From Cenarchaeum sp. (GTDB lineage: Archaea; Thermoproteota; Nitrososphaeria; Nitrososphaerales; Nitrosopumilaceae), in the NCBI GenBank assembly GCA_965242695.1, contig CBDESU010000002.1, positions 256,001-320,000 on the forward strand: a stretch of DNA of 64,000 nt, in the 5' to 3' direction. A model generated the notes under the pieces. It saw only the letters and a list, made by a program, of their open reading frames with translations, was not told the DNA's origin and searched no databases. Positions within the stretch are counted from its first letter, which is position 1. The number at the start of each line of letters is the position of its first letter. This document shows, piece after piece, positions 20,574-59,740 of the stretch. Both the position numbers and the translations under genes were made by a program.

Positions 20574-20715
20574 TGAGGGCCTCGATCTCGGCATCCTTGC
20601 GCTCGTTGTCGGCCCTGAGGGCCTCGATCTCGGCATCCTTGCGCTCGTTGTCGGCCCTGAGGGCCTCGATCTCGGCATCCTTGCGCTCGTTGTCGGCCCT
20701 GAGGGCCTCGATCTC
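20574..20715 (-). repeat. 42-bp tandem repeat x3+ encoding coiled coil RADNERKDAEIEAL
   Basis: Three identical units plus a partial unit in the IS66 N-terminus. Confidence 0.9.
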
Positions 20716-40262: not shown

Positions 40263-40403
40263 CTCCCTGAACTATTGAGCGGCGAGGGAAGGGGCGCGAA
40301 CGGGCATCGCAGGCGGCCGGATGCACCCCCGGTGCGGGCGGGAGCGTTGCGAAGGACTGGCAACCATGTCGTAGCGCTGGACAACACTACAGGGAGGGCG
40401 AGG

Positions 40404-40505
40404 GTGGCTGTAGGGAGACGGTGCGGAGGGGTCAGCACGCAGTGCACAGGTACACCATGCACGCGCCGATCAGGAGTGGCTGTAGGGAGACGGTGCGGAG
40501 GGGTC
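40404..40505. repeat. 30-bp perfect direct repeat x2 (72-bp period)
   Basis: gtggctgtagggagacggtgcggaggggtc at 40404-40433 and 40476-40505. Confidence 0.85.
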
Positions 40506-40891
40506 TGCATGGATGCCCGGAGGCCGAGGCGGTCCCCAAGGATGCGGACAGGATCACCGCCGGGCATGTGGGGCATTGGCAGGTGCATGCCGTCGCAGGT
40601 CGGGAAGGCCATGCATGGACGGCGGTGATGGCCCATATAAGGGCGACAGGTTAGGAGATGGGAGGGCTCGGCAGGGCACCCACCAATACGGCAGGCTTGG
40701 GCCTAGCGAACTCTATGCCGCGTGCCGTGCCAGTGGGTACGGCGGTGGAGGATGACCGTACGACCTTGGCACACGAAGGCGGTGATACGGAACAGCACCT
40801 TCACCACCATGCCAATCTCGCCTCACTCGCCCCCGCCCCGGTTTTTTCATAGGTGCACGCCGCATCGCAGGGCGCTTCGTAGGTGGGGGCA

Positions 40892-41066
40892 TCAGCCACT
40901 CTGTGCCCCCCCCCCCCCCGCAAAGACGACGTCGTGCGGCGGCTCGATGGAGCGCAGGACTGCGTCGTGGTAGGTGCGATCTAGTGCCTTGAGGCGAGAC
41001 GTGTGGACATATTCGCCGCCGCCGAGCCTGTGGCTCTGGTGGACGACGACAATCTTCACAACCATG
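40892..41066 (-). pseudogene. N-terminal fragment of a GT4 glycosyltransferase ending at a G14 tract
   Basis: VKIVVVHQSHRLGGGEYVHTSRLKALDRTYHDAVLRSIEPP aligns with MKVGVIERYFMSSGGAERVTLSMLRMLAGTDHETVLYTLKPP of the 34451-35599 gene. Confidence 0.6.
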
Positions 41067-41316
41067 CCTTGAGGCGAGGGTCTATGACTTCCATGTCGCG
41101 GCCGGCGCCACCTCGTCGACCGTATGCTGGCCTCAGCAGGCTGCAATGCCACCACGGCTAGCCTTTGTAATGCAACCGTGCTCCCGATAGGCGGCAATGC
41201 CCCTGCCGCCATGCAACGGGTTTGGTACGCAACTCTATCCAGCACGCGCCAGTGCCTCCACGAGTGCGGGGCAGGGGCAACCAATGCTAATATACGCTCG
41301 GCAGGCCCCGCCGCGC

Positions 41317-42126
41317 GTGCTTGACAACGGCAAGTGGGACTACCCAAAGGTGGTCCTGTACTGCCAGATCGGCAAGGCCACGGACATGCTAGACTTCTCC
41401 TTGGGCCAGGCCGTCGCCAACGCGGGGATGCCCAAGGAGGACTATGACATCGTATTCGTGTGCTGGCGCACCTCGGAAGAGGTCTACGACTACCTCAGGG
41501 CGAGGAACTACAAGTACGTCGACATGGAGCACGACGCCGACAAGGACTTTTTGTGGAACCTGTACAAGGGCTGGAACTTTGGGTACGAGATTGGGTACAG
41601 ACATGCCGACTACGTGTGCCCCATCGCCACCGACCACGCCTTCTATAGGGACTGGCTCAAGAACCTCTACTCCTGGGCCGCCCCCAACCGCATCGTCAAC
41701 TGCAGGCTCATTGAGCCCGGCACGCTGCCGTCCCTGCACACAACCAGGAACCTCGGCCTCACCCTGCCCGACGAGTTCGACGCGGCGGGGTTCGAGGAGC
41801 TAGCCTCCGAGGTGCACAGGGACGAGATGGCCACCGACGAGGCCGCCTACGGGCACCGCTTTGATGCGATGCCGTTCGTCTGCCCGCGCGACGTATGGGA
41901 CAGGTTCGGCCCGATGCGGCCGACGCTCACCGACGACGGCATCACTGGCGACACGGACTTTTTCGACCGCTGCCGCGCAGGCGGCGTCGAGATTACAAAG
42001 GCCCTCAACGCGATCAGCTACCACTGCGGAGGGCTTGAGACGAGGCGGAACGAGCCAGAGGCCGCCGCCCCGCCCCCACGCGCCGGCGCGGCCCAGAAGC
42101 TGCTAGGGAGGCTGAAGAGGCGTTGA
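41317..42126 (+). CDS. GT-A-fold glycosyltransferase-like protein
   Basis: First gene of an overlapping operon. YKGWN.G, TDHAF..DWLKNL, RLIEPG and GDTDFF parallel the C-terminal domain of the 44406 gene. GTG start inferred from TAATATA at ~41288. Confidence 0.65.
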   Translation: MLDNGKWDYPKVVLYCQIGKATDMLDFSLGQAVANAGMPKEDYDIVFVCWRTSEEVYDYLRARNYKYVDMEHDADKDFLWNLYKGWNFGYEIGYRHADYVCPIATDHAFYRDWLKNLYSWAAPNRIVNCRLIEPGTLPSLHTTRNLGLTLPDEFDAAGFEELASEVHRDEMATDEAAYGHRFDAMPFVCPRDVWDRFGPMRPTLTDDGITGDTDFFDRCRAGGVEITKALNAISYHCGGLETRRNEPEAAAPPPRAGAAQKLLGRLKRR

Positions 42127-42914
42127 GGATAGGAATAGTCGGCGTCGGCACCGTGGGATCGGCCGTCCAGTTCGGGCTAGAGAAGAAAAGGGGGCACGAT
42201 GTCGCCGTGCATGACGTCAAAATGCAGGGGACAAGCCTAGAGCAGGTGTACGATTCCTCGGACATGATATTCGTGTGCGTCGGCACGCCGCAGAACCCCG
42301 ACGGAACGTGCGACACGTCTGCCGTCGAGCAGGTCTGCACCTCGATCGAGGCGATGGCCAGGGAGAGGGGCGAGACAAAGGACGTCGTGGTAAAGTCGAC
42401 CGTCATACCGGGCACCGTCTCCAAGCTCGAAAAGGCCTGCCCGTCGCTCAGGCTAGCCATGAACCCCGAGTTTTTGCTCGAGCGCGCCGCGGTGCAGAAC
42501 TTTTGCGACCAGGACGTGTGCGTCGTGGGGACAGACCACGACGACCTGTACGGCCGGATCGTCGAGGCCCACGGCAACCTGGCAAGGGAGTACGTCCGCA
42601 CCACGCCGGTCAACGCCGAGACCGTCAAGTACTTTCTGAACGTGTTCAACTCTACGCGGATCATATTTGCAAACCTCTTCTACGAGGTGTGCGGCAAGGT
42701 CGGCGCCGACTACGACGAGGTCAAGGGCCTGGCAGTCAGGCGCGACAACATGATCGACTCGTACCTAGACTGCAACAAGAACCTTCGCGGGTTCGGCGGG
42801 GCGTGCTTGCCGAAGGACACGGAGGCGCTGTTTGCGCTCGCATCGAGGGAGGGCGTGCAGTACGACTTCCTGAAGGGCGTGCTGGCTGACAACAGGAGGA
42901 TCGGCGATGTCTGA
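42123..42914 (+). CDS. UDP-glucose/GDP-mannose dehydrogenase family (short form)
   Basis: GIVGVGTVG, CVGTP, KSTVIPG, NPEFL.E, GFGGACLPKD. Ends shortly after the catalytic Cys motif. Confidence 0.9.
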   Translation: MRIGIVGVGTVGSAVQFGLEKKRGHDVAVHDVKMQGTSLEQVYDSSDMIFVCVGTPQNPDGTCDTSAVEQVCTSIEAMARERGETKDVVVKSTVIPGTVSKLEKACPSLRLAMNPEFLLERAAVQNFCDQDVCVVGTDHDDLYGRIVEAHGNLAREYVRTTPVNAETVKYFLNVFNSTRIIFANLFYEVCGKVGADYDEVKGLAVRRDNMIDSYLDCNKNLRGFGGACLPKDTEALFALASREGVQYDFLKGVLADNRRIGDV

Positions 42915-43962
42915 CGGCGGCAGGACGGCGCTCGTCACCGGATCGCAGGGGTTCATCGGCTCGTACCTGTGCGCCGAGCTGCTCGGGAAGGGGTACTCGG
43001 TCGTCGGCATCGACGACTACTCAAAGTACGGCCCGCTCGTGCGCCCGCACGACTCGCACCCGTCGTTCAGGCTGGTCAGGGCAGACTGCTCGTCGGACAG
43101 GTTTCGCGAGAGCTTCCTGGAGGGAGAAGAGGCGGGCACGCGGTTCAACTACGTGGTCGCCGGCGCCGCCATGATCGGCGGCATCTCCTACTTTCACAAG
43201 TACGCGTACGACCTGCTGGCCAAGAACGAGCGCATACAGGCCAACACGTTCGACATCGCCATCGACAGGCACAAGAGGGGGATGCTCGACCGAATCGTCG
43301 TCGTCAGCTCCAGCATGGCGTTCGAGAACGCCGCCGTGTGGCCTACCCCCGAGGGGCACCAGCGCGAGTGCCCGCCGCCGTCCTCCACGTACGGCTTCCA
43401 AAAACTCGCGTCCGAGTACTTTGCGCGCGGCGCGCTCGAGCAGCACGGCCTGCCCTACACGATCGTACGGCCGTTCAACTGCATAGGGGTAGGCGAGGAC
43501 AGGGCGTTAGGCGAGGAAGAGGTCATGTCGGGCAACGTAAGGCTGCTCATGTCCCATGTGGTGCCCGACCTGGTCAACAAGTGCCTGCTCGGGCAGGATC
43601 CGCTGCACATACTGGGTTCGGGCTGGCAGGTGAGGCACTACACCAACGGGAGGGACATCGCAAGGGGCATCCGGATGGCAGCCGAGTCGCCCGGCGCCGT
43701 AAACGAGGACTTTAACATATCGACGGGGGCAAGCACGACCGTGATGGAGCTGGCCCGGATGATATGGGAGAGGATCAACCCGGACAGGCCGTTCCGCACG
43801 GTCTCGGATCCTCCGTACGAGCACGACGTGCAGAGGCGTGTGCCCGACGTGGAAAAGGCCAGGCGCGTGCTCGGCTTCGAGGCAGAGATCGGGCTGGACG
43901 AGAGCCTTGGTGAGGTGATCTCGTGGCTGCGCGCCAGGATGCCGGAGGCGAGGGCCAGGTGA
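42907..43962 (+). CDS. NAD-dependent nucleotide-sugar epimerase/dehydratase
   Basis: VTGSQGFIG, SSS, YGFQK (YxxxK), RPFN. Confidence 0.92.
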   Translation: MSDGGRTALVTGSQGFIGSYLCAELLGKGYSVVGIDDYSKYGPLVRPHDSHPSFRLVRADCSSDRFRESFLEGEEAGTRFNYVVAGAAMIGGISYFHKYAYDLLAKNERIQANTFDIAIDRHKRGMLDRIVVVSSSMAFENAAVWPTPEGHQRECPPPSSTYGFQKLASEYFARGALEQHGLPYTIVRPFNCIGVGEDRALGEEEVMSGNVRLLMSHVVPDLVNKCLLGQDPLHILGSGWQVRHYTNGRDIARGIRMAAESPGAVNEDFNISTGASTTVMELARMIWERINPDRPFRTVSDPPYEHDVQRRVPDVEKARRVLGFEAEIGLDESLGEVISWLRARMPEARAR

Positions 43963-44387
43963 GCGAGGGATGCGAGGGCCAGGCCGCGGACGGCCGCGCA
44001 CCGGCAGCGGCGGCGGGCAGGGATGCCAAGGTGTTTGCCGAATATGGCCCCCCCATGGACGAGGTCGCCGAGTTTGTCAACTCGTGCAACTCGTTCTCCG
44101 AGCTCGTGGACCGGCTGTGCATCGAAAACGTGCGGCTGTGGCACATACTCGACGACACGGCCGAGCTCAAGCGCGAGCTGGAGGAGGCCGAGGCGGGCGG
44201 CGACGGGGCCAGGCGCACCGAGATACTCGAGAGGATTGCAAAGAAGTCGTTCGAGAACATAGAGACAGTGAAGAGGAGGTCGGCCTTCAAGAGGGCCATC
44301 GACGAGTCGCTCAAGCACAACGTTGGGCGGATGGTGCGCGGCGGCGACCCAAGCGTGTGCATCGAAAGCAAGAGCTACGGCAGGTGA
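43959..44387 (+). CDS. Small helical protein, DUF4254-like
   Basis: ELVDRLCIENVRLWHILD...R....AID; GTGA overlap with the epimerase stop. Confidence 0.55.
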   Translation: MSEGCEGQAADGRAPAAAAGRDAKVFAEYGPPMDEVAEFVNSCNSFSELVDRLCIENVRLWHILDDTAELKRELEEAEAGGDGARRTEILERIAKKSFENIETVKRRSAFKRAIDESLKHNVGRMVRGGDPSVCIESKSYGR

Positions 44388-44405
44388 CCGGCGGAGGCAT
44401 TCCGC

Positions 44406-46634
44406 CTACTCGTCCTTTTCGCCCTCCTGCACATGGTACACGATGCTGTCGAACGCCGTGACGTGGGACACGCCCATCGACTTCAGCGTCTCGTAGAAGT
44501 ATATGGCATCGCCAGAGGTCGTCGAGCCGTCCGGCTCGGTCCTGTTCCCTATGGGATAGCCGCCGCTGCGCCGGAACGTGTCGGCGTATATGGCGCACGG
44601 CATGAACAGGCCGCCCTGCTTGGCCTTGTCCTCGGAGATACGGCTGGCAAACTCTTGGAACGCCTCGTCGTCGAAATTCGAGTGCGTCGTGCCAAAGTCC
44701 CTCTCGATCCCGTACTTGCCAGAGCTCATCTTTCCCGACTCTACTAGGCGGGACGTGACGATCGTCTTCTCGTCTAGGCGCCTGAGCAGGTTGTCGAGCC
44801 ACCCCGGCGTAAAGGCCATGTCAGAGTTGACGAACACTAGGACGTCGCCGCCGGCTGCCATGCCGCCGTGGTTCCACGCGCGGTACACGCGGCTCATGTA
44901 GTGCTCGTCGGGGTCGGGGCTGCGGAATACGGTGTGCCTCATGCCCGAGGAGCGCAGGAACTCGAGGAGCCGGTCGGTCGGGTCGTTGGCCACGAACGTA
45001 AACTCGACGTTGCCGTACCTTGCGCCGCGGCCCCTGCCGGTGTGGCGCTCGAACGAGTCGTGCACGAACCTGGCGTAGGCGGGGGACTTGTATACGAGGC
45101 AGACTACCGAGACGCTCAGGGCCGACGGGGGGAACCAGTCCCGCGAGAACGGCTCCGTTTGCAGCGTCGACTCGTCCCTTATGCGCTCGAGCATGCGGCC
45201 CGCCTGCCCGTGCCGCTTGTAGTTTTCGTACTTTTGCGAGATGGAAGTTCCCGTGGAGAACCCGTAGTGGATCACCCTCGTGGTGGCAAGCTTGGACCTG
45301 CCGAGGCCGGCGGGAGACTGCTGGTGATGCAGGCCCTCGCGCACGTCGAATGCAAGGCGGCCGGTGTTTCTCCACAGCTTGGTCTGCCAGGCCTTGAACC
45401 ACAGCTCGTCCGTCCTGTACCTGTCCAGGGACTTCCACAGGTTGTAGTACCTGAACCGGAATGCATCGATTCCCTTTTGGTCACCGTGCCTGCACAGGGA
45501 CCGTATGTCGCCTAGCTCGCCGGAGCGGTCGAAGACCTCGTCGGCGTCGAGCCAGACTAGCCAGTCGGGGTCGAGGCGCAGCGCGGCCTCGAGCATCTGC
45601 TGCTTGACGTACAGCTCGCGCCTAAAGTCGTCGGGGGCCGTCATGATGTTGGAGGTGAAGCGCTCGGCGATCCGGAGCGAGTCGTCGGTCGAGCCGTTGT
45701 CGCATGCCAGTATGTCGTCGCAGAAGCGGACCATGTGGCGCAGGCACCGCTCCAGGTTGCCGCTCTCGCTCCCCTCGTTGCGGAACTTTACGAATCCGAC
45801 CAGGCGAACGCCGTCGTTCCTGCCGCCGTTGCACAGGCGGGACGCGTCCACTATGGGCGGGTCGCGCCAGTCCCTGTACGAGAGGATCGCCCGACGCGCG
45901 ATGCGGCGGGGAAGAGATCGGCGGATCGGCGTCGCGGAGGGGGCGGGCGGGGCAGGGGCGGGCGGCTCAGGCATGCGAACCGCCTCCCCCCCCCCCGGCC
46001 GCGGAGCTGGCGGCCGCGTTTTTGACGCAATGAACTGGTTCTTGATCTCTAGGACGCGATACCCCCTGCTGCGAAATTCGCCCGGTTCCCAGCCGCACAG
46101 ATGCCTTTCCAACTTGCTGTGGTGCAGTCTGACGTTGTACTCGGCGTCGACGAATCCGACTGGCGTGGCGATGACCAGCAGGCGGCCGTACATGCCTTCC
46201 AGCGTGGCCAGCAGGCGCCGGCCGTCGTCCTTTGGCAAGTGCTCTATGACATGGTGGCATATGACGACGTCAAAGCGGCGGCCGAGCACTCGCACGTCCC
46301 TTGCGTCCATGATCCTGTAGTCCCCCGGGGGCCCGTTCTTCTCCCTCCACTTCACGCATGGTGGGAATGCATCTATTCCTGTCACCTCGTATTCGCCGCC
46401 GCGGCATATCTCGTGCAGTATGTCCTCGGTCATTGGATTGCCATCGTGCAACATGCCGCAGCCGACATCTAGTATGCTGTGCGCATCTGGAGGGATCAGG
46501 CCTGTGATGTGCGGTATGTTGTCGCTGTTCTTGGCGGCATCAACGGGGCTGGGCGGCGCCGCAGGCAGGGCCCCGGCCTCCCACCGTCCAAGGCGCCCCG
46601 CCGCTCGCCGCACGGCGGCGGCAAGAGACGTCAT
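44406..46634 (-). CDS. Class I SAM methyltransferase joined to a two-domain GT-A protein (probably two genes joined through a G11 tract)
   Basis: ILDVGCG and HVIEHL in the N-terminal part; DNGSTDDS, LDADE and NSDMAF downstream; internal ATG at 45974. Confidence 0.75.
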   Translation of the reverse strand: MTSLAAAVRRAAGRLGRWEAGALPAAPPSPVDAAKNSDNIPHITGLIPPDAHSILDVGCGMLHDGNPMTEDILHEICRGGEYEVTGIDAFPPCVKWREKNGPPGDYRIMDARDVRVLGRRFDVVICHHVIEHLPKDDGRRLLATLEGMYGRLLVIATPVGFVDAEYNVRLHHSKLERHLCGWEPGEFRSRGYRVLEIKNQFIASKTRPPAPRPGGGEAVRMPEPPAPAPPAPSATPIRRSLPRRIARRAILSYRDWRDPPIVDASRLCNGGRNDGVRLVGFVKFRNEGSESGNLERCLRHMVRFCDDILACDNGSTDDSLRIAERFTSNIMTAPDDFRRELYVKQQMLEAALRLDPDWLVWLDADEVFDRSGELGDIRSLCRHGDQKGIDAFRFRYYNLWKSLDRYRTDELWFKAWQTKLWRNTGRLAFDVREGLHHQQSPAGLGRSKLATTRVIHYGFSTGTSISQKYENYKRHGQAGRMLERIRDESTLQTEPFSRDWFPPSALSVSVVCLVYKSPAYARFVHDSFERHTGRGRGARYGNVEFTFVANDPTDRLLEFLRSSGMRHTVFRSPDPDEHYMSRVYRAWNHGGMAAGGDVLVFVNSDMAFTPGWLDNLLRRLDEKTIVTSRLVESGKMSSGKYGIERDFGTTHSNFDDEAFQEFASRISEDKAKQGGLFMPCAIYADTFRRSGGYPIGNRTEPDGSTTSGDAIYFYETLKSMGVSHVTAFDSIVYHVQEGEKDE

Positions 46635-46979
46635 TGTAGATCCGATCCCAGCTGCGCCGGGACGGCCTGGTGTCGCATGGAAGGGAGCAGAAGAGAGGAG
46701 GCGGCGGCCAACCAAGGAGCGGCGCTACGGGGTCCTAGACGGGACGGATTTGCGCGTAGGCGCGATCCCGTAGTCACAGTTCGCTGCGGCCTCACGCGCC
46801 GCGCGTCGCACCAGTGCCTTATTGGTGTTATCTGCGCGGGCGCGGGCGGTGGAAGTGGGACATCGGCGGACGGGGGCAGGCGGCCCGGAGCGCCGCCGGC
46901 GATGGCCGCCTGTGCGGCGGCGACCGGCACACCTGCGCCTCTCCCGCACATAAATACGGGCGCGGCACGGGCTGCCGCA

Positions 46980-50360: not shown

Positions 50361-52304
50361 TCATGCCGGGCTCGAGCCTCCCGCCGCGCTGCCGTCCAGT
50401 ATGGCCTCGACTATCCGCCCCAGCCGTTCGGGGCGCATGCCCCTCTGCTCCATCTCCCGCATCATCAGGTAGGCAAGCAGTGGCTTCTTGTCGCTCCTGC
50501 CACTCAGCCCGTACTCCCGCCTGAACCGTACGGCGAGCGGTGCGTGTATTTCCTCCCCCATGTCGGAGCGCAGCATGCATTCCATGTCGGCCTCGCAGCA
50601 GGCAAAGTCGGGGGTGATGGCCCCGAGCCAAGCGCCGGCGTCGATTTCGTCCCGGGGCATCCCGAGCAGCGACAAGAGGCAGGCGTTGTTCTTTTTTTCG
50701 CTCTCCTTATTGTTGTCCCCGTCCCAGACGACGTACGTGCGCACGCCTAGCTCCTTGAACATGGCAAGGGGGGCGTGCAGGTTGCCCTTTGGCCCGCACG
50801 ATATGACGGCCACGCCCCTCTCGTCAAGCGGCGTGCCGAGCATCTCGGCCGCCCTCATGACTGCTATCCGGTCGGTGTCGCCCTCTACTAGAACCACCCT
50901 GTCGGCAAAGAACCCCTCGCTCATCATAGGAGTCAGGATGCGGTCAAAGTCGTGCTCTAGCCTGCCCGGGTCGGTGCGCCTTGTGGCGCCTGCGTCGACA
51001 AGCCTCTTTCGGATGCTGTCCATGTCGGTCCGCCATACGCGGGTGGTTTTGGGCTTGTCCCTGCCGCCGTCTACCTTGCGCAACATGCGCACCTGTCCGA
51101 TCCGGTCGGCGCCGACAAAGTACGGCGAATGGGTTGTGTAGACTACCTGCATGCGGTCGGCCACGCCGTCAAGCCCACTTTGGGACATCGAGCGGAACAG
51201 GCCTGCAAGATGGCGCATTCGAGTCGGGTGCTGGTAGATTTCCGGCTCCTCGACGGCAAGCACGACCGACGGCCTTTCATGCGTCCCACCCTTGGGTCCG
51301 TCAAGGTTTTGCAACCAAGGAAGCTGCCGCAGGGCGGCCATGATGACAAACGCCCTCTGCAGGCCGTGCCCCGCCGTACCGACCGGCGACACGTACTCGT
51401 CCTCTGCGAGGCGCGGCTCGGCCCGTGGCATGTCGCCGTCCGGGCTTGGCGGGTGCCACTCTAGTTTGACTTGAGAGCCGGGTACAATGCTTTCGAGTGT
51501 CTTGGTCACCTGTGACTTGAGCTCGTCAAGCTCGGAAAGGCCTTCGCCCCGCATAAAGGCAGGGGTCATATCTTTGAGCGCGGTTCGTGAGTCTTGATGT
51601 ATGATCGTTCTGGCAAATGCGTTTTTGGTGGTTTCGTCCAAGAGGCCGCCCAGAACCGAGCCCGCGCCTCCCCCTTTTTTCCCTGCTGCCGCATCACGCA
51701 CGGCAGGGATGTAGAGGATGTATACGTGCTCTTTCAGGTAAGCGGCGCCGTCAACGCCGTCCCCCATGAGCGCCTCGTCGTCGTGGCGGGCATTGTACTT
51801 GTCGGGGTTGTCTTGTACCCAGTCTCTCAAGTAGTCGCGTATTTTGCTGGCTGATGTCAATTCGGGGAAGTTAGAGTACTTGGACATTTCAAACAGTTCG
51901 ACATAGTACCTGAGGGTGGCATCATCGTCTGATTCGTCTAGGGCATCCTCAAAGTCGGGGTTGCCAGGATAGCATCCGTGAAGTGAGCTTGCCGTCTCGT
52001 CGTCCTTCCAGCGAATAATGCGTTTGATGCCAAGTTCGTTGTCACTGGTGTACTTTGGAAACGCGGTCATGACTGCATTTGGAAGATCGGTAAATGTGAT
52101 CTGGATGCTTATATCTTGCGTGGTGTCCCTGTTGTGGTAGTCGTCCTTGCAGGCGGTCATGTCTCCTTGGAACAGCATCAGGGCGTGCAGGAATGTGGAC
52201 TTGCCGGCACCGTTGGGGCCGACTAGGGCGGTGAGGCCGTCAAGGGCCAAGGTGCAGTCCTTTACGGCGCGCAGGTTCTGCACGCGGATCCTCTTGATGC
52301 GCAA
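50361..52304 (-). CDS. OLD-family ATP-dependent nuclease (ABC ATPase + TOPRIM)
   Basis: TTG start MRIKRIRVQNLRAV; Walker A GPNGAGKST; signature-like GHGLQR; Walker B/D-loop VEEPEIYQHP; TTHSP; TOPRIM LVEGDTD and WDGD. Confidence 0.9.
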   Translation of the reverse strand: MRIKRIRVQNLRAVKDCTLALDGLTALVGPNGAGKSTFLHALMLFQGDMTACKDDYHNRDTTQDISIQITFTDLPNAVMTAFPKYTSDNELGIKRIIRWKDDETASSLHGCYPGNPDFEDALDESDDDATLRYYVELFEMSKYSNFPELTSASKIRDYLRDWVQDNPDKYNARHDDEALMGDGVDGAAYLKEHVYILYIPAVRDAAAGKKGGGAGSVLGGLLDETTKNAFARTIIHQDSRTALKDMTPAFMRGEGLSELDELKSQVTKTLESIVPGSQVKLEWHPPSPDGDMPRAEPRLAEDEYVSPVGTAGHGLQRAFVIMAALRQLPWLQNLDGPKGGTHERPSVVLAVEEPEIYQHPTRMRHLAGLFRSMSQSGLDGVADRMQVVYTTHSPYFVGADRIGQVRMLRKVDGGRDKPKTTRVWRTDMDSIRKRLVDAGATRRTDPGRLEHDFDRILTPMMSEGFFADRVVLVEGDTDRIAVMRAAEMLGTPLDERGVAVISCGPKGNLHAPLAMFKELGVRTYVVWDGDNNKESEKKNNACLLSLLGMPRDEIDAGAWLGAITPDFACCEADMECMLRSDMGEEIHAPLAVRFRREYGLSGRSDKKPLLAYLMMREMEQRGMRPERLGRIVEAILDGSAAGGSSPA

Positions 52305-52629: not shown

Positions 52630-55600
52630 TCACTGTCCCTCCACCCCCTTACGGATCGACGGCGGTGGCGGCGCAGCCGGCCCAAGCAACTCTTCCGCAT
52701 ACCGGCCGATCGCCTTGTCCGGCAGACCGAGCTCGGACAGGCAGGAGAGCCGCCCGGCGCGCGCGTCGGCGTTGTCGGGGCTCAGTTCGAGCGCCCGGTC
52801 AAAGTGCCCGAGCGCCTCGCGGTGCATCTTCAGGCTCTGCAAGGAAAAAGCCTTGTTGCAGTACAGGCCAAAGTTGCCCGGCTCGAGCGCGATCGCCGCG
52901 TCAAAGTGCCCGAGCGCCTCGCGGTCCCTGTCCATCTCCGCCAGCACGATCCCCGCGTTGTTGTGCGCCCCGGTGTTGCGGGGATCCAGCTCGGCGGCCC
53001 GCCCGTACTCCTCCAGCGCCTCGGCCAGGCGGCTGATCGCCTGCAGGGACATCCCGCGGTTGTAGTGCAAGATGGCCTGCGTCGGCTCGATCCGGATCGC
53101 CCTGTCAAGGCAGTCTAGCGCCTCCTCGTGGCGGCCGAGCTCCGCGAGCATGCCGCCCATGTTCGAGAGTGCGCGCGGGTCGTCGGGCGTGGTCGAGACG
53201 ACCGCCTCGCAGTGAGGCAGCGCCTCACCAAAGCGGCCCAGATCGCGTAGCAGGTAGGACGCAAGAGCGCGAAAGTCCGTCTTGGTGGGATCGAGCTTGA
53301 CGGCCCGCAGGCAGTGAGGCAGGGCCTCTTCCTGGCGGCCCAGCGCGCGCAGGGAGAGCGCCATGACAAAGTGCGGCCTGGGATCCGACCGGTTCGCCTC
53401 GATGGCCCGGCCGCACAATCGCAGGACCTCTTTGTGGCGATCAAGCCGTTGCAGCAAGGCCACTAGCGGCATATACGAGTCGACGCGGCCGGGCGCGGCC
53501 TCGATTGCCCTGCGCCCGTACAGCATGGCCTCCTCGTGGAGGCCCATCTTCGACAGGCAAGTGGACACCCTCTCGTGGGCCAGCGGATCCTCCGGCGCGA
53601 TCTCGGCGGCCCTTTTCGCATGCTGCAAGGCCTCTTCATACCGTTCAAGGTGAAACAGGGTGAATGACGCGTCGTGGTGCGTCTGCGCGCTGCTCGGATC
53701 GAGGCTTGCCGCCCTCAGGCGGTGCGGCAGGGCCTCGGCGTGGCGGCCGAGCGCAGACAGGAAGCGGCCCGTGGCGGCATGCACGGCGGCGTTCGAGGGA
53801 TCCGCCCTGATTGCCGCCATGCAGTGCTCCAGCGCCTCCTCGTGCAGGCCCATCCCCGTCTGGGACTGGGCCATCCTGAGATGCAGGGCGGCATCGGGCG
53901 CGCCCAGCCCAGCGGCCATCTTGTAGGCGTCATACGCCTTGTCGTACCTCTTTTCCTTGAAGAGGCGGTCGCCGCGGTCCACGTACCCTTGGCGCTTTGC
54001 CGCCCCATCATCGCATCCGTTGCCGCCGCCGGCGGAGGCTACGGAGGGGGATGCCAGTCCAGCCGGCCTGCCTTGCGAGGTGGGCCCGCCTGGCGGCGCT
54101 CTAGGCATCTGCGACAGGGCAGAAGCGGGGGGCGGACGGAACGGGGAGCCGCCATCCCCCCGAAAGTCGGCGGACATGAATTTTTCGTGGGAGACTATGT
54201 CGACTCCCATGTGCCGCGAGATCAGAGGCTCGTGTTTGGTCACTATTACAGTGTGCACAGCATAGTCGTAAAATGACTCTTCCAGGTCAAGGCCGAAGTT
54301 CTTCAGGCTTGCAAAATGGCGCTTGAAAAGACGGCGCCGCCGGTGGTGCCTCTTGGCGTGCTCGAGCAGGCCGCGCCGCCCGTCAAGCACCAGCTGGCCG
54401 ACCATAGTCGTCCCTGCCTTGGAAGAGGGCGAGATGTCCTCATACTTTGCCTCTACGAGCACGATGACCTTTTTTGCGCGATCGACGGCTATGCAGTCGA
54501 ACTCTGTCTTTGCGTTGTCGAACGACATGCGCAGCTGCGGCCGGTTGGGCCCGGGGTGGACTTCGAACCCGTCGTCGCGCAGCTTTTGCCTTATTTTTTC
54601 CTCGAAATGGTGCGCGGCGACCTGTCTTTTTTTGTTGTATGTTGTCTGCCCCGCTTCGGTCTGCGTGCCGGAAGTCGAGGTGTTGTTTGAAAACAGGTAT
54701 AATAAGTAAAGAAGCATGGCAGGGTAATCGAAGTAATACCTTTCGCCGTCAAAGACCAGGATCGGCGCGTACGTGTGGCCGGACGTGTAGTCCTCTAGAA
54801 ACCTGCCAAAGTCCCCCTGCATGTTGTTCATCACGGCGGCACCGTCGTAGATTTCGCGGAGGCGTTCCTCGGTAATGATTCCAACGCCGCCCGGCGGGCA
54901 CGTCCTCCAGACGGAAAACAGCGCGGCAAAGTCTTCCGATCGGGACGGGTAGCGGTGCATCTTTGAGATATCGTGCCCCATTTTGAATATATGGTTGAGC
55001 GAGCCGACGAGGGTCAGAGAGTTGTCGTAGATTGTCTGAAAGTCGAACGCGCTTTCCGCGGGCCTGCCTCCGGACTTCCGGTCTATGTCATAGAACGAGT
55101 AGCATGCGGCCCGATCCTGCCGGTTACCGGCGTTGACAAGTCCAAAGGCCATGTCGAAGCTCTGCAAAGCGCGGTGGTACTTTATGACGTATGGCTCTGC
55201 ATTTGCGGTGGTGATGTAGTACTTGGAGCACAGGTTTTCCACTAGTTGCAGTGTGTCAAAGTGGTCATAGTACTGGTCGAACTCGCGGCGGAACTCCGAG
55301 TAGTCTTCCGAGCGGCCCCATTCCGCATTGCCGCTCAGGCGCGTCAGCAGGTAGCCTATGGAGGAGAGGATGCCCAGATTCATGTCGTTGCCTTTGAACA
55401 GCTTTGCGCACTCGTGCGCCCTGGCCTCGAAGAGCTTGCGGAACGCAAACCCCCTGCTGAACCTGCGGAACTGCCGTACGCTCTCGGCGCACAGGTCCCT
55501 TGCGCGCTCCGGCCCCTCGTCGCCGCTGACGTCACCGGAAAACTCCCCCCTGCTCGCGTAGGCATCGCATGCGCGGTTGAAGCACACCCCTTCCGCCGTG

Positions 55601-55746
55601 CCGTCATTGACGTAGAGTGGATCGTAGCAGAAGAGGCACAGGTAGTCGGAGTCGGTGCCGGCCAAGGCGGACTTGTCGTACCTGTCGGCGCGCGCCCGGC
55701 CCGTCCCACTTGGAACGCCCGCAGGGCGGGAAGGTGCGGGGGTCAT
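52630..55746 (-). CDS. Zn-finger + PD-(D/E)xK (NERD-like) nuclease fused to a C-terminal TPR array
   Basis: CLFC...CFNRAC; FEEKI...EFDCIAVD...VLVEAK; about 12 TPRs (GRHEEALDCLDRAIRIEP). Start position uncertain. Confidence 0.75.
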   Translation of the reverse strand: MTPAPSRPAGVPSGTGRARADRYDKSALAGTDSDYLCLFCYDPLYVNDGTAEGVCFNRACDAYASRGEFSGDVSGDEGPERARDLCAESVRQFRRFSRGFAFRKLFEARAHECAKLFKGNDMNLGILSSIGYLLTRLSGNAEWGRSEDYSEFRREFDQYYDHFDTLQLVENLCSKYYITTANAEPYVIKYHRALQSFDMAFGLVNAGNRQDRAACYSFYDIDRKSGGRPAESAFDFQTIYDNSLTLVGSLNHIFKMGHDISKMHRYPSRSEDFAALFSVWRTCPPGGVGIITEERLREIYDGAAVMNNMQGDFGRFLEDYTSGHTYAPILVFDGERYYFDYPAMLLYLLYLFSNNTSTSGTQTEAGQTTYNKKRQVAAHHFEEKIRQKLRDDGFEVHPGPNRPQLRMSFDNAKTEFDCIAVDRAKKVIVLVEAKYEDISPSSKAGTTMVGQLVLDGRRGLLEHAKRHHRRRRLFKRHFASLKNFGLDLEESFYDYAVHTVIVTKHEPLISRHMGVDIVSHEKFMSADFRGDGGSPFRPPPASALSQMPRAPPGGPTSQGRPAGLASPSVASAGGGNGCDDGAAKRQGYVDRGDRLFKEKRYDKAYDAYKMAAGLGAPDAALHLRMAQSQTGMGLHEEALEHCMAAIRADPSNAAVHAATGRFLSALGRHAEALPHRLRAASLDPSSAQTHHDASFTLFHLERYEEALQHAKRAAEIAPEDPLAHERVSTCLSKMGLHEEAMLYGRRAIEAAPGRVDSYMPLVALLQRLDRHKEVLRLCGRAIEANRSDPRPHFVMALSLRALGRQEEALPHCLRAVKLDPTKTDFRALASYLLRDLGRFGEALPHCEAVVSTTPDDPRALSNMGGMLAELGRHEEALDCLDRAIRIEPTQAILHYNRGMSLQAISRLAEALEEYGRAAELDPRNTGAHNNAGIVLAEMDRDREALGHFDAAIALEPGNFGLYCNKAFSLQSLKMHREALGHFDRALELSPDNADARAGRLSCLSELGLPDKAIGRYAEELLGPAAPPPPSIRKGVEGQ

Positions 55747-55988
55747 GGGCGCCCCCCACCAAAGTCCCGCCGCCCCCCTTGGGGCAGGCGCACGAAGGCC
55801 CCACCCGGCAGGGTACGGGACACGGCCCGGCGGCGGCACTGTTCGAGCCGATCGGCAGGACGCCGTGCGATCGCTTCCGCCCGCACCGGGGGGCAACCAG
55901 AGTCCACAGAGGGCGGCAGGCCGCTAGCCAACACGTTTATCGTCCCGCCTGTGTCACAACTGCGGCATGAGACCTTGCCCGTGGCCAT
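55743..55988 (-). CDS. Small Cys-rich ORF, first gene of the leftward unit (possibly a degenerate Zn-ribbon gene)
   Basis: ATG 23 nt after TTTAAATA; CRSC motif; its TGA overlaps the next ATG (ATGA at 55746-55743). Confidence 0.45.
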   Translation of the reverse strand: MATGKVSCRSCDTGGTINVLASGLPPSVDSGCPPVRAEAIARRPADRLEQCRRRAVSRTLPGGAFVRLPQGGRRDFGGGRP

Positions 55989-56011
55989 TGTAAGGGGCCG
56001 CCACACGAGTG

Positions 56012-56048
56012 TATTTAAAGGGTATTTTTCCACCGCATACCGTGCACA
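56012..56048 (-). promoter_or_regulatory. Leftward TATA/BRE promoter with an adjacent partial protospacer for spacer 1
   Basis: TTTAAATA at 56019-56012 preceded by purine-rich GAAAAA. Minus strand 56048-56031 is TGTGCACGGTATGCGGTG, preceded by TTG. Confidence 0.75.
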
Positions 56049-56246
56049 CAAAAGGATATTAGGGGCCAAAAATGCGCGCCCTTGATGGCTCACAGGTAGG
56101 CGGGGATGACAGGACAGGATCGCCCTACCGCTACGGCAGGGCCGACTGCATGCCCTAGGCGCAGCTGGCGTGCGAGACCGATCGCCGGCGTGCAGTGTAG
56201 TTGCAGGAACGAGGTGGCGCATGCCGCACCGCGCGCCTCGGATCGC

Positions 56247-56414
56247 GTTCCGCACCTCGGGTGCGGCCCCATTGAAGCTGTGCTCGGTACGCGGTGCTGT
56301 GCCCGATCGCGCCACTTCCGCACCTCGGGTGCGGCCCCATTGAAGATGCGATCGGCGTGCAGCGTGCTGGGCGGGCGCAGCCGTCCCGCGCCGCGCATGC
56401 GGCCCCGGTGCGCT
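56247..56414 (+). CRISPR. Orphan CRISPR-like mini-array: 2 intact repeats, 1 degenerate repeat, two 36-nt spacers; type I-G (I-U)-like repeat
   Basis: 32-nt repeats at 56247 and 56315 share ttccgcacctcgggtgcggccccattgaag (hairpin ccgcacc-tcg-ggtgcgg; ATTGAAG 3' end). A degenerate copy lies at 56383 (19/24 over its first 24 nt), keeping the exact 68-bp period. Confidence 0.85.
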
Positions 56415-56503
56415 GCACGGCAGGGGCAGGCGGCTACAGGGCGCTGGAAGCGGCGCTGTGCCGCACACCCCGCTGGACGATCAACAAGCAGGAGGAGGCT
56501 ACC

Positions 56504-59500
56504 GTGCTGAGCGAGAAAGAGGAAAAAATCGCAAGGATGCTGGAGGGCAGGTACGGCGAAGAGGTGGCGGGCGCGTTCAGGGGCGGCATCAAGGTCCTCG
56601 ATCACGACAACGAGGACAGGGTGTGCCAGTCGGCGCACTCGCTGCGGGAAGTTCTGGTGATGGTCTACAAGCAGGAAAAGATGGACAGCAAGAAGGAGCC
56701 CAAAGGCGAGGCCGAAAAGGACAACAAGAAAGGGTTCGCGCACAATTTGTCGGTTGTGATGAACCGCGTTGGGCAGCCGACGCACGATGACACCCTCTAC
56801 AGAAAAATAGCCAAAAACAAGGAGCGGCTCGACGGCATTGCGCATCACAGCAGCCGGCGTGACAAAAGAAAGTACAGACTTACAGTGAAGGAGTTTGAAG
56901 AGCTGCTTGAAGAGCTGCTAGCGCCCCACTTTAATGCGCTGGACGACGTCGAGCGCCTCATAAAGAAGCAAACCCCGACGAAGTCTGACTTTGAGGAGCT
57001 GGAAACGCTGCTGTCGAAGAACGACTCGCTGCGCGACTATTTTTTTCAGAACGCAGGGCCGGAATGGCTCGCCCGCCTGGTAGAGGAGGGCTACTTTTCA
57101 AGATCGCATAGGGCAAAAGGAGGGGACGGTGGCGCAATCCTTGCCGACAGGACACTGGCCGGATACCTAGCAGGATGCGCAAAGGAGATGCCCGAGCTAG
57201 CCGCCGGGCCGCTGGCCAGCATGCTGGAGGCAGGCGGCTGGCCGCAGGATCCGATAGTGCAGCTGCATGCGGTGCGCGCCGCCCTCGCCATGCCGCCCGA
57301 TCACGCGCTCAGAATCGCCCGGCAAGTACGACCGGGGCGGCAAGGCCACCCCCTCCACTACTCGGTTGCGGTGCAGGAGGTCGGCGAGCTGGCCGTCCAT
57401 CTGGCGGGATCGCACGCCGGCGACGCGGTCAAGCTGGCCGGGACCCTCTTGTCGGTGACTAGCCGGGTGGGCAGAACCGACACACTGGGTGGCCTTAGAA
57501 TCGAGCACATCGACGTAGTGCCCGTGGTGGGAAGCTACTATTTCGGACTCGCCCTGAAGGACGCAGTATCGCGCCTGTTCGACAAGGCGCCCGTCCAGAC
57601 CACGGCAATGCTGGTGCGCCGCTTGGCCAGGATCATACGCATGGAAAACACGGCGCTCCCCGAGAGCGAGCGCGACGGCGACGCGTCTGTCTACTGGCGG
57701 CCGGCGATCGAGGACCATGCAAACAACCCGCCCGACTTCAAGTCGGATTTGACCGGGACGCTGGCCAGGCTCCTGGTGGAGCTGGGCAAGAGGTCGATTG
57801 CGGAGCTGAAAGAGGCGCTGCGGGCGCTGGCGGAAAAAGGCTATCCGGTGTTCAGGCGCATCGAGCTCCACGTCTACAGGGCCCTCCCAGAGGCCTTTGA
57901 AGACGAGATCAACGCCGCGGTCGGGGCCTGCTTCGGCAGGCGGGAGATGAAGCACGAGTACTTTTGGCTGCTCAGGGGCAGGTTCAGGCACCTGCCCGAG
58001 GCAGTCCGCAGGGGGTACCTGGACAGGGTAGCGGGCGGCCCGGGCGAGCCGTATGTTCAGATAGCGGGCGAGCTTGAACGGGAGGGCAGAGGCCCGCCGC
58101 CCGACGAGGCCGTACGGCGCTGGAAGGTGGACAGGCTGGCCCCCGTGCGCGACCAGCTGACCGAGGCCGAGATGGGCATCGTGGGGGATGCTGTACGAGA
58201 GGACTTCCGCTCGGCCTGTCCAGACTTTGTTGTGCAGTACGGGCCGGCCCGGGTCGGGATCGACACCACGTCACTCAAGAAGGGGCTGGAGCCGGACGCC
58301 GTGATGGAGGCCCTGCGATCGTACGGCGGCAGGGACGACTACTTTTGGAACACGGACGGCACCCCGGAGAGGTTCCAAGAGTACTGCAATGAGTATCCAG
58401 GCGAGTACTCCAAGCGGGCCGGCGAGCTGGCCGGGTACCATCCGCGCCTGAGGGCGGCGCTCTTCGCCGGCCTTCAGGCGGCGGCGGGCAAGAATGCCGA
58501 CATTGACTGGGACGGCGTCCTAGGCCTCTGCGCCTCCACCGTCAAGTCGGTCACGGACGGGGGCGCCGCGTTCGGCGACGAGACAGGGGCGCTTGGCACG
58601 GCGGCGGCGCTGCTCAGAACCGCATTGAGCAAGGACCTCATCGAGCACTCGAAGAGGGACGAACTATGGGGCCTGCTAGAAGGCATGGTGATGCTGGGTG
58701 GAGAAGACGATCTGTCGGACGAGGAAAGAGCGGCCCAGACAGGTGGCGATGCGGCGTCGACGATTCACAACACGGTCGGCGGCATGACGCTCTTGGCCGC
58801 CGGCGAATACGCCATGTGGCGGTCTAGGCATGCAGGCGAAAAGCCGGGCCTTGCGCCAGAGGTGAAGGGGCTCCTCGACAGGTACATCGGCATGGACATC
58901 TACAACACGCCCTCGAGGCATGCGGCGGTAGGGAACATCCTGCCCCTCCTGTACCGGTGCGACAAGGGCTGGATCCAAGGAAGAATAAAAGGTGTATTCG
59001 GCGGCGGCACAGGGGAGCTCACTCGCGCCGCGTGGTCGGGCTATCTCGTCAACGATCCCGACTGGAACTCGTTCGGCGACATGGTTTGGATGTACAGGGC
59101 AGGCGTGGCCAGCCCGAAGAGCCCGTCCGCTGACGACGGCGGCGACTTTATGCCGTACAGCAAGGGCCTCATCAACCACGTCACGCAGGGGCACCTCCTG
59201 CGTATGGGCGAGGCCGACGGGCTGTTCGAGGACATGTCAAAAAACCTCAACAAGAGCGGCAGATCGCACTGCGCATGGATCGTCTATTTGATCCTAAAGG
59301 CCCACAACGGCCACCAATGCGAGTCGTTCGACAGCGAGAGGCTCAGGAGCATATGGAAAGACAGGAGGTTTGCGTTCAACGACTCTCTTAGCGGGTGGGT
59401 CGAGTTCAGCCCCCTAGAGCCGGAGGAGACGCTGGAGCTGCTGCACGGGTCGCTAGAGGCGGCGCCCGACAATGCCATGCCGATGTTCCTGCTAAGGGAG

Positions 59501-59740
59501 CTGAGGCCATTCGCGGACAGGCATCCCGAGAAGGTGCTGGCGTGCCTGGAGGATGTGGCTTACAACGAGTCCCTGCACGAGGAGATCCGCTTTGGCGGGG
59601 ACGACCTGCAGAGCATCCTCAAGGCACTTCTCAAAAACAGGCCGACGCGCCGGCGCGCGACCGAGGTGATAAACAGGGTGGGCGAGCTCGGCTACAACGA
59701 GTACTGCGCCCTGCTGGGCGGAGATGGTACGGGCGCATAG
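56504..59740 (+). CDS. Putative defence protein: N-terminal HEPN-like nuclease domain + long alpha-helical region
   Basis: GTG start after GGAGGAGG; N-terminal QSAHSLRE...RLDGIAHH; internal YWRPAIEDH.NN motif reminiscent of helical regions of SIR2/DUF4020-type defence proteins (recalled, unverified). Confidence 0.6.
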   Translation: MLSEKEEKIARMLEGRYGEEVAGAFRGGIKVLDHDNEDRVCQSAHSLREVLVMVYKQEKMDSKKEPKGEAEKDNKKGFAHNLSVVMNRVGQPTHDDTLYRKIAKNKERLDGIAHHSSRRDKRKYRLTVKEFEELLEELLAPHFNALDDVERLIKKQTPTKSDFEELETLLSKNDSLRDYFFQNAGPEWLARLVEEGYFSRSHRAKGGDGGAILADRTLAGYLAGCAKEMPELAAGPLASMLEAGGWPQDPIVQLHAVRAALAMPPDHALRIARQVRPGRQGHPLHYSVAVQEVGELAVHLAGSHAGDAVKLAGTLLSVTSRVGRTDTLGGLRIEHIDVVPVVGSYYFGLALKDAVSRLFDKAPVQTTAMLVRRLARIIRMENTALPESERDGDASVYWRPAIEDHANNPPDFKSDLTGTLARLLVELGKRSIAELKEALRALAEKGYPVFRRIELHVYRALPEAFEDEINAAVGACFGRREMKHEYFWLLRGRFRHLPEAVRRGYLDRVAGGPGEPYVQIAGELEREGRGPPPDEAVRRWKVDRLAPVRDQLTEAEMGIVGDAVREDFRSACPDFVVQYGPARVGIDTTSLKKGLEPDAVMEALRSYGGRDDYFWNTDGTPERFQEYCNEYPGEYSKRAGELAGYHPRLRAALFAGLQAAAGKNADIDWDGVLGLCASTVKSVTDGGAAFGDETGALGTAAALLRTALSKDLIEHSKRDELWGLLEGMVMLGGEDDLSDEERAAQTGGDAASTIHNTVGGMTLLAAGEYAMWRSRHAGEKPGLAPEVKGLLDRYIGMDIYNTPSRHAAVGNILPLLYRCDKGWIQGRIKGVFGGGTGELTRAAWSGYLVNDPDWNSFGDMVWMYRAGVASPKSPSADDGGDFMPYSKGLINHVTQGHLLRMGEADGLFEDMSKNLNKSGRSHCAWIVYLILKAHNGHQCESFDSERLRSIWKDRRFAFNDSLSGWVEFSPLEPEETLELLHGSLEAAPDNAMPMFLLRELRPFADRHPEKVLACLEDVAYNESLHEEIRFGGDDLQSILKALLKNRPTRRRATEVINRVGELGYNEYCALLGGDGTGA

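Follow-up and report, generated by a model that had tools for sequence, protein, structure and literature searches.

A CRISPR mini-array beside divergent, putative defence genes of a Cenarchaeum genome carries a candidate guide for promoter repression by a remote type I-G effector

The mini-array and its surroundings

We analysed 64,000 nucleotides (nt) of Cenarchaeum sp. (GCA_965242695.1, contig CBDESU010000002.1, positions 256,001 to 320,000; hereafter the window, G000:C2:256001-320000 in our numbering), part of a two-contig genome of 3,887,671 bases (3.89 Mb) with 67% G+C, whose rRNA genes are archaeal by score. The window contains a very small CRISPR array, the mini-array (56246-56414, plus strand; C2:312246-312414), and one of its spacers matches the putative promoter region of the adjacent candidate defence genes. 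Positions refer to the window unless a contig is named. The mini-array lies in a 757-nt non-coding stretch (55747-56503) in which no frame has the codon-position G+C pattern of the flanking genes. The layout is divergent: genes for a nuclease-TPR protein and an OLD-family protein are read leftward, and a gene for an alpha-solenoid protein of 1078 amino acids (aa) is read rightward, with the mini-array between them on the rightward side.

The mini-array consists of two 33-nt repeats, identical over 30 nt and spaced with a period of 68, and a degenerate third repeat, with 35-nt spacers between them. In repeat 1 (56246-56278), a hairpin of 7 bp with a loop of 3 nt precedes CCCC and the 8-nt handle ATTGAAGC. 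Repeat 2 (56314-56346) forms the same hairpin and ends in A instead of C, and the degenerate repeat 3 (56382-56414) keeps part of the stem and the CCCC, with the handle gone. Spacer 1 is located at 56279-56313 and spacer 2, which varies among strains, at 56347-56381; all five elements are on the plus strand. The leader, adjacent adaptation genes and mobile-element spacers of an ordinary array are not found here. The 250 nt upstream of the mini-array bear no likeness to the leader of the main CRISPR array of the genome (described below), searches of the phage and plasmid collections with the main array and the DNA of the locus gave no match, and spacer 2 has no significant target in the whole genome, the best runs being 15-16 without a TTN flank. 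An Rfam search of the window found no family.

Spacer 1 matches the region upstream of the leftward genes

The guide part of spacer 1 (positions 1-5, 7-11 and 13-18) is identical with the minus strand at 56048-56031. Compared with the reverse complement of 56014-56048, the spacer is identical at 16/18 of positions 1-18, all but 6 and 12, and at 0/17 of positions 19-35. Our recomputation thus reproduces a preliminary description of this DNA, made from the letters alone, that had reported a match starting at spacer position 1 with these two mismatches and nothing beyond position 18. The target site (56031-56048, minus strand, 18 nt) is 231 nt away from the spacer and at about -43 to -60 from the ATG and likely start of the leftward unit. 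The 5' flank of the target, at 56049-56051 on the minus strand, reads TTG as had been stated, and it fits the TTN protospacer-adjacent motif (PAM) reported in vivo for type I-G systems (PMC9638904).

When every sixth base is skipped, the match of spacer 1 at this site runs for 18 positions and the next best one, on either strand of the 3,887,671-base genome, for 12. Base composition gives a probability of 2.2e-9 per position for the 15 specified bases, which corresponds to 4.3e-6 for 2000 local positions (within 500 nt, both strands) and to 1.2e-7 when the TT flank is included. In an empirical control with the spacers of the main array, 27 of 329 matched somewhere in the genome at positions 1-5, 7-11 and 13-17 (50 hits; a rate of about 2e-8 per position), and a TTN flank was present in 0/50 hits. 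Two mismatches in 18 positions would both fall on positions 6, 12 or 18 with a probability of 3/153. The match of spacer 1 exceeds chance, and the feature is real and statistically solid.

A coding-looking repeat present in three copies on contig C1 (892747, 908271 and 993586) has 11-nt seeds to both spacers of the mini-array. These seeds are on opposite strands, 44 nt apart and without TTN, and the seed for spacer 2 is found in two of the three copies. We treat them as chance.

Putative promoters on both sides of the target

The target and the element TTTAAATA are both contained in 56010-56075, the sole AT-rich part of the non-coding stretch, and the only TATA-like elements of the divergent intergenic region flank the target on both sides. 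On the leftward side, TTTAAATA (56012-56019, minus strand) is the putative TATA box; it follows the target at a distance of 11 nt and precedes ATG 55988 by 23 nt, in line with the earlier statement that the target adjoins a TATA box at this distance from the leftward ATG. The genome has 24 copies of TTTAAATA, 13 of which are followed within 300 nt by the start of an open reading frame (ORF) with a coding signature. The median distance is 22 nt, with at most 40 nt in eight cases, and the reverse-orientation control gave 7/24. Comparable lone TATA-like boxes were seen by eye at the rRNA operon and the CRISPR leader. The spacing of TTTAAATA also suggests that many genes of this genome are leaderless or nearly so.

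On the rightward side, the AT-rich segment 56050-56075 (plus strand), which begins at the PAM, is a candidate TFB recognition element (BRE) and TATA box for a transcript comprising the mini-array and the alpha-solenoid gene. Its A-rich part (56050-56063) would touch the PAM end of a bound complex and is the only candidate promoter for that transcript. The segment is the only AT-rich stretch in 56030-56503; the element upstream of cas3 looks similar by eye. Because neither a T-run terminator nor an AT-rich box was seen between 56075 and GTG 56504, the mini-array most likely belongs to the leader of the rightward gene. The promoter assignments on both sides were made from sequence and are putative. 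If a complex were paired over positions 1-18, the 17 remaining spacer positions would span 56030-56014, which comprise the BRE region and most of the TATA box of the leftward unit; the box would start under positions 30-35 and extend past them.

The segment 55747-55988 (minus strand) precedes the first large leftward gene and contains an 81-codon frame, running from ATG 55988 to 55743, whose stop overlaps the next ATG (ATGA). This frame had been described as a Cys-rich ORF. Its G+C content by codon position is.72/.68/.75, compared with.64/.46/.80 in neighbouring genes, and in strain X6 only two of eight substitutions in the frame fall on third codon positions. Since it lacks coding composition and has few third-position substitutions, we read it as probably a leader, or at most an unconstrained upstream frame; a conserved protein is unlikely, and that part of the description is corrected accordingly. 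The position of ATG 55988 suits a leaderless start.

A type I-G system on the other contig

The main CRISPR array of the genome is on contig C1 (1072557-1096394) and contains 330 repeats, which recur about every 72 nt; its spacers are 31-40 nt long, most often 36. Nine of its spacer sequences are present twice. On the same strand are genes for Cas4g/Cas1g and Cas2 upstream and for Cas3g, Cas8g2, Csb1/Cas7g and Csb2 downstream of the array. All five type I-G-named NCBIfam models were matched, four of them above cut-off, and the general Cas2 model was also above its cut-off. The scores were 602.7 bits for Cas3g (cut-off 400), 142 for Csb1, 219.6 for Csb2, 688.3 for Cas4g/Cas1g and 35.6 for Cas2, while Cas8g2 reached 111.2 bits, under its cut-off of 125. 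The helicase and HD motifs of Cas3 can be read by eye, and the type I-G locus appears complete and intact. The preliminary description had proposed a type I-G Cascade encoded elsewhere in the genome, and the cas genes and the 330-repeat array on C1 bear this out. It had also noted the lack of cas genes in the window, and no cas family was matched among the window genes scanned. The cas genes (C1:1065868-1098883) and the mini-array are on separate contigs, at least about 1.38 Mb apart (sum of contig coordinates).

Arrays with a related repeat had been expected in the genome, and the repeat of the main array has the same 8-nt 3' end and the same order of stem, 4 nt and handle as that of the mini-array. 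Past a variable dinucleotide, the two repeats agree in their first 7 nt, and they agree again in the last 17-18 nt. Their stems differ by one pair that is changed on both sides (CCGCAAC/GTTGCGG in the host repeat, CCGCACC/GGTGCGG in the mini-array repeat), and the loop has 3 nt in the mini-array repeat versus 6 nt in the host repeat. The mini-array repeats are the only copies resembling the host repeat outside the main array. In type I-G, the Csb2 cut falls 4 nt past the hairpin base, so that an 8-nt handle is left at the 5' end, and Csb2 remains bound to the 3' hairpin (PMC9638904). From that report, the cut in repeat 1 is predicted to fall before 56271, and because the mini-array repeat fits the Csb2 layout exactly, we predict a mature RNA of 68 nt (56271-56338).

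Elsewhere in the five genomes of the genus, the stem type of the mini-array was not found. Full arrays with this stem are present on three contigs of bacterial metagenome-assembled genomes (MAGs), titled Planctomycetaceae, Victivallales and Lentisphaeria, and compared with the repeat unit of the Planctomycetaceae MAG the mini-array repeat lacks, after the first two bases, only three loop bases. Judged by these repeats, this is a type I-G repeat family common to bacteria and this archaeal genus, and instead of having arisen as a duplicate of the host repeat, the mini-array may have been brought in together with the island. Whichever the origin, the handle and the stem design match those of the host.

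The arrays of this genome and of two congeners are very large type I-G arrays. The array of G002 has 531 repeats (C1, about 2939600-2982000) with a repeat that differs from that of the present genome in the loop, and the array of G004 has 231 repeats (C2, about 2348900-2365700) with a repeat identical to that of the main array described here. A solitary repeat of the family (stem, CCCC and handle) was detected on an IMG/VR contig (L059:11151-11195, minus strand), with no second copy within 150 nt, and is a candidate RNA anti-CRISPR or crRNA-like RNA (crlRNA; crRNA, CRISPR RNA) of a virus. The other 15 viral matches of the 16-mer look like chance.

Targets of the main array were also searched. 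Among 329 spacers compared with their own genome, two have perfect matches, at C1:975632-975669 (38/38) and C2:698844-698878 (35/35), the latter in a 3-kb stretch of 52-59% G+C. The 754 spacers of two congeners gave only low-complexity matches in this genome, 20 kb of the main array had no match in the phage collection or in genomes G001 and G003, and the last two spacers of the main array have no CreR-like seed match within the cas locus.

Conservation among strains and related genomes

Most of this stretch is present in five sequencing runs, and we compared the assembled contigs of four of them, which may derive from closely related samples; none of the runs listed for the stretch is recorded as RNA. 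Run X4 contains three haplotypes over 55954-56190, with 0, 23 (plus 1 gap) and 38 (plus 9 gap letters) differences and depths of 80.9, 46.8 and 54.2, respectively. Over 56217-56354, which comprises repeat 1, spacer 1 and repeat 2, the same run has a single record with 0 differences and a depth of 238.7, which is that of the whole bin 56278-56311. Variation in X4 reappears in spacer 2 (56361, 56368 and 56369) and in the degenerate repeat (56397). Spacer 1 shows no differences in the contigs of the four runs where it is covered. Indels are listed at 56020, 56023 and 56030 and insertions behind 56049, 56051 and 56054, and by our reading TTG is intact in those contigs.

In X6, a 534-nt record has 21 differences, two of them in the target. 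One is at 56031 (position 18, which would be unpaired) and the other at 56034 (position 15), where the change is C to T on the target strand and would therefore give a G:T wobble with the guide. This record has 0 differences in the PAM, the TATA box, repeat 1 and spacer positions 1-13, and spacer positions 14-28 are uncovered. The conservation among strains that was to be expected of a working guide is thus seen, with the PAM kept and the block of repeat 1, spacer 1 and repeat 2 free of differences.

A blastn search of the 901-nt locus against 41 genomes recovered CRISPR repeats only, in two other genomes. The exact core of the mini-array repeat had 0 matches among metagenome contigs, and a translated spurious frame across the intergenic region, used as a query for the DNA of other strains, had no match.

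The genes on both sides

The leftward unit encodes a 1038-aa protein (52630-55746, minus strand) that combines a Zn-ribbon-like Cys cluster, a PD-(D/E)xK-type domain whose fold is Upx-like, and TPR repeats at the C terminus. The Cys cluster and residues E415, D417 and K434 are invariant in a 24-sequence alignment. A structure model of the first 532 residues (mean predicted local distance difference test, pLDDT, 85.7) has a sole strong Foldseek match, to Upx (9wuf; E 2.4e-6, at a template modelling score of 0.37 only), followed by weak matches to PD-(D/E)xK proteins. Upx is described as a defence nuclease (9wuf). The protein Atlas gave leads only for the nuclease domain (Upx-like and NERD) and placed the rightward protein in unnamed clusters. 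Homologues of the 1038-aa protein with 86-62% identity are present in the protein collection (P0021-P0023). Of 47 database relatives of the Upx-like family, 46 have no Pfam domain and the remaining one has TPR families only.

The OLD-family ATPase-TOPRIM nuclease gene follows (50361-52304, minus strand), its likely start being TTG 52304 behind GGAGGT. The protein matches Pfam AAA_15 (3e-30), an OLD-like TOPRIM domain (2.5e-18), PADLOC Old (1.7e-51) and PDB 6p74 (7.6e-25). The assignment of an OLD gene to the leftward unit in the preliminary description therefore holds for the family, whereas the start is most likely not at 52700. No TATA-like motif was seen in the 325-nt G+C-rich gap upstream of the gene.

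The pair of Upx-like and OLD genes recurs in two other loci, a paralogous one in the same genome (G000:C2:484057-491210) and one in a congener (G004:C2:690300-694900), neither of which has a mini-array. The two neighbours occur in either order, and in the paralogue a gene of its own encodes the TPR part. Together with the OLD protein, the Upx-like Zn-ribbon/PD-(D/E)xK protein makes up a candidate two-gene nuclease-NTPase defence system, and the nuclease domains make toxicity of the leftward genes at most plausible.

The rightward gene (56504-59740, plus strand) has a GTG start and encodes a 1078-aa, all-helical HEAT/ARM-like alpha-solenoid protein, whose fold resembles generic HEAT/ARM solenoids only. 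We found no enzymatic domain in it and no sequence relative in PDB; PADLOC matches it weakly to the C-terminal part of Dsr1. Close homologues with 87-64% identity are in the protein collection (P0005-P0008), and the family-wide search detected only distant homologues, which are present in 15 of 400 other genomes and do not exceed 32% identity.

Elsewhere in the window, a surface-glycan cluster (39366-46724; glycosyltransferase, methyltransferase, epimerase and UDP-glucose dehydrogenase) adjoins the defence genes. Tandem repeats with a 162-nt unit are present in three places (3736-4279, 22835-23193 and 30479-30884) and with a 144-147-nt unit in two (15045-15723 and 16793-17617), and perfect tandem repeats have a 27-nt unit (12.4 copies, 11488-11822) and a 42-nt unit (3.4 copies, 20574-20715). 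The long tandem repeats presumably sit in repeat-domain surface proteins.

A probable crRNA-like guide for repression and its alternatives

In the reading that we think probable, the RNA from spacer 1 acts in the manner of a crRNA and guides the resident type I-G Cascade to a promoter, which is thereby repressed. The steps from transcription and processing to binding without cleavage and repression, and the biological pay-off, are inferred, as follows. Transcription would proceed rightward from the AT-rich stretch at about 56050-56075, and host Csb2 would cut 4 nt past each hairpin to release the 68-nt RNA (56271-56338), made up of the handle ATTGAAGC, the 35-nt spacer and a 25-nt 3' hairpin part from repeat 2. 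The type I-G Cascade, whose genes are on the other contig, would take up this RNA. The complex would bind 56031-56051 through TTG and 16 bp in three 6-nt segments, with the mismatched positions 6 and 12 flipped out; type I-G has 6 nt of crRNA per Cas7 (PMC9638904). The remainder of the 35-nt footprint would lie over the BRE and TATA box of the leftward unit, and the PAM end would abut the candidate rightward promoter. With pairing ending at position 18, a partial R-loop would form, and the complex would occupy the DNA and not destroy it. In this way the Upx-like nuclease-TPR and OLD genes would be repressed and, by feedback, probably the mini-array and the alpha-solenoid gene as well. Loss, titration or blocking of Cascade by an anti-CRISPR would then switch the genes on.

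Several observations count against a repressing guide. The mini-array repeat is closer to bacterial repeats than to the host repeat, from which it departs by one stem pair and the loop length, so that loading by host Csb2 is presumptive. Both perfect self-matches of the main array have other 5' flanks (CGC and AAT) and TAA directly 3', so that they provide no PAM from this organism; the two spacers may be TTA-selected, inserted flipped and harmless. What the strains document is conservation of the guide, not covariation with the target, and the two divergent X4 records are known at 56032-56048 from their listed differences only. The locus is absent from all four other genomes of the genus, which leaves no independent evolutionary replicate, and no mini-array is found beside the closest homologous operons (G004 with 57-59% identity, the paralogue of the same genome with 50%, G317 and G022). 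The paired part of the target lies upstream of the TATA box without covering it. Finally, in type I-G the effector stably contains Cas3 even before it meets a target, and Cas3 is needed for stable binding of double-stranded DNA and in vitro nicks the non-target strand at R-loop position 8 without ATP (PMC9638904); binding without cleavage is therefore a supposition for type I-G.

The mini-array may instead be a functionless remnant of an orphan array or an import with the island, its spacer 1 match being due to chance or to a decayed self-derived spacer. Two good repeats and a degenerate one do look like the end of an ordinary array, of five genomes of the genus only one has the mini-array, a target for spacer 2 was not found, and three-block seed matches somewhere in the genome are found for 27/329 ordinary spacers. 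We nevertheless hold this to be unlikely, since the local chance is about 1e-6 to 1e-7, decay would scatter identity instead of leaving 16/18 and then 0/17 and placing the two mismatches at flipped positions, and repeat 1, spacer 1 and repeat 2 are unchanged across strain haplotypes with flanks that differ by 10-16%. The affinity of the repeat to bacterial type I-G-like arrays, with a stem shared by three MAG contigs, would also suit a counter-defence RNA of a mobile cassette that soaks up or redirects the type I-G effector, with the nearby match being secondary. Viral and plasmid crlRNAs that hijack Cas proteins are known (10.1101/2024.10.29.618823), and one viral contig carries a solitary repeat of the family. 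An RNA of this kind is quite improbable here: no integrase, transposase or viral gene is present among the window genes scanned (part of the window), neither spacer of the mini-array has a seed match in the cas locus, the phage and plasmid collections contain no match, and the sole significant target is the promoter of the cassette itself.

Both 18-mers together form an inverted repeat, and the mini-array is preceded by the only candidate promoter and followed by the start of the 1078-aa gene, the whole segment being free of T-run terminators. The repeats might accordingly be a structured 5' leader, perhaps cut by Csb2, and the 18-nt likeness an inverted repeat for a protein or for long-range RNA pairing. 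Given the candidate promoters at the AT-rich boxes, however, neither transcript would contain both arms, and a cis element of this type offers no reason for a match that starts at spacer position 1, has its mismatches at exactly positions 6 and 12 and is flanked by TTG, so we give it little credence. It is also conceivable that the guide brings the Cas3-containing effector to act on the DNA (by nicking, priming, or recombination and diversification of the island) and not to repress, as Cas3 is pre-bound and position 8, where it nicks (PMC9638904), is paired here. It would be costly to have the chromosome chronically nicked next to a promoter, the partial-match guides characterised so far all repress without cleavage (PMC8501985, 10.1101/2024.12.27.630466, PMC10120712), and the locus is intact with the site kept in the reference haplotype, all of which makes action on DNA very improbable in our view.

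Beyond repression by a crRNA-like guide, the locus may tentatively be seen as a portable cassette supervised in trans by CRISPR, a proposal that we consider possible but rather doubtful. It would hold two divergent defence units with a shared promoter region and their own guide in one leader, would use any resident type I-G Cascade as the repressor and so come to depend on it, and would provide a back-up, triggered by loss or blocking of Cascade, without linkage to cas genes. Movement of such a cassette between bacteria and archaea is hinted at because the guide repeat is closer to bacterial type I-G repeats.

Relation to known Cascade-guided regulators and implications

The closest parallel is the CRISPR-supervised immune systems (CRISIS) of bacterial type I-C (Shu et al., 10.1101/2024.12.27.630466), in which a crlRNA with 16-bp complementarity to a promoter and a mismatch at position 6 represses Nezha. 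A second crlRNA represses Gabija, whose GajA is an OLD-family nuclease, and the proposed pay-off is control of autoimmunity together with protection against anti-CRISPRs. Common to CRISIS and the present locus are a repeat-bearing RNA, partial pairing with a promoter beside a PAM, repression by Cascade (there described, here proposed) and an OLD-family gene. CRISIS, however, occupies the cas operon itself, where it separates cas3 from cas5c and has its repeat unit immediately ahead of cas5c, whereas here the system is of type I-G and archaeal, the mini-array is on another contig than the cas genes, the guide is in a divergent leader, and the partners are an Upx-like nuclease-TPR protein and an OLD protein. 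The part of the text of 10.1101/2024.12.27.630466 available to us, supplementary data aside, makes no mention of archaea, type I-G or sites outside cas operons.

Haloarchaeal CreTA (type I-B) is likewise archaeal, has two repeats around a guide and pairs a seed with a promoter beside a PAM; the pairing of CreA comprises positions 1-5 and 7-11 and leaves 6 and 12 free (Cheng et al. 2021, PMC8501985). The CreTA operon promoter is auto-repressed, and feedback is likewise proposed here. In contrast to CreTA, where CreT is a small RNA toxin, the repeats are degenerate and the module is within or next to the cas operon (PMC8501985), the present locus encodes large proteins, may pair to position 18, has repeats that are not mutually degenerate and is remote from cas genes. 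The regulatory mini-arrays of Shmakov et al. 2023 (PMC10120712) also resemble it, with two repeats, one spacer and partial complementarity to promoters with mismatches at positions 6 and 12. Their predicted targets are mostly cas promoters and include cargo such as toxin-antitoxin and defence genes. That search was limited to CRISPR-cas loci; its table gives a value of 0.04 of 235 loci with a mini-array for type I-G, and we found no type I-G case in the part of the text available (PMC10120712). CreR RNAs (10.1101/2023.03.10.532045) are grouped with the regulatory mini-arrays of CRISPR-cas loci. Racr (PMC10651486) and Cracr (10.1101/2024.10.29.618823) are, as here, repeat units outside cas loci that use Cas proteins of the host, but they are on mobile elements and silence cas genes or CreT toxins, whereas the guide described here matches its own adjacent promoter region in a chromosomal defence island.

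The preliminary description had taken a module of this kind to be undescribed. Cascade-guided repression of defence operons, including Gabija, is known from type I-C (10.1101/2024.12.27.630466), and the claim is kept for the combination of type I-G, an archaeon and a site remote from cas genes, which is not described there. We did not find a type I-G case, an archaeal case beyond type I-B haloarchaea or a module unlinked to cas genes in the literature, supplements aside. The locus has host-like repeats outside the main array, genes for the cognate effector in the genome, and PAM-proximal partial complementarity with free sixth positions to a putative promoter, as expected of a crlRNA. We therefore file it as working like a crlRNA or CRISIS module, yet not as a member of CRISIS or CreTA as so far defined, because it does not have the position inside or directly beside a cas operon that defines both.

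The Cascade-guided regulators of toxins or defence systems described so far are all in or beside cas operons, the sole places searched in the work consulted (Shmakov et al., Shu et al.). If the proposed regulation is true, CRISPR effectors can supervise genes anywhere in a genome, and a second immune system would be under remote CRISPR control. Orphan mini-arrays, which are usually dismissed as debris, would then merit a seed-plus-PAM search of their surroundings. With its 68-nt guide, 18-nt site and TTG PAM, the locus is a compact object for tests. If the cassette interpretation also holds, a type I-G effector containing Cas3 would bind a partial target stably without cutting it. The principle of Cascade-guided regulation of defence genes would extend to subtype I-G and to an archaeal lineage outside the haloarchaea.

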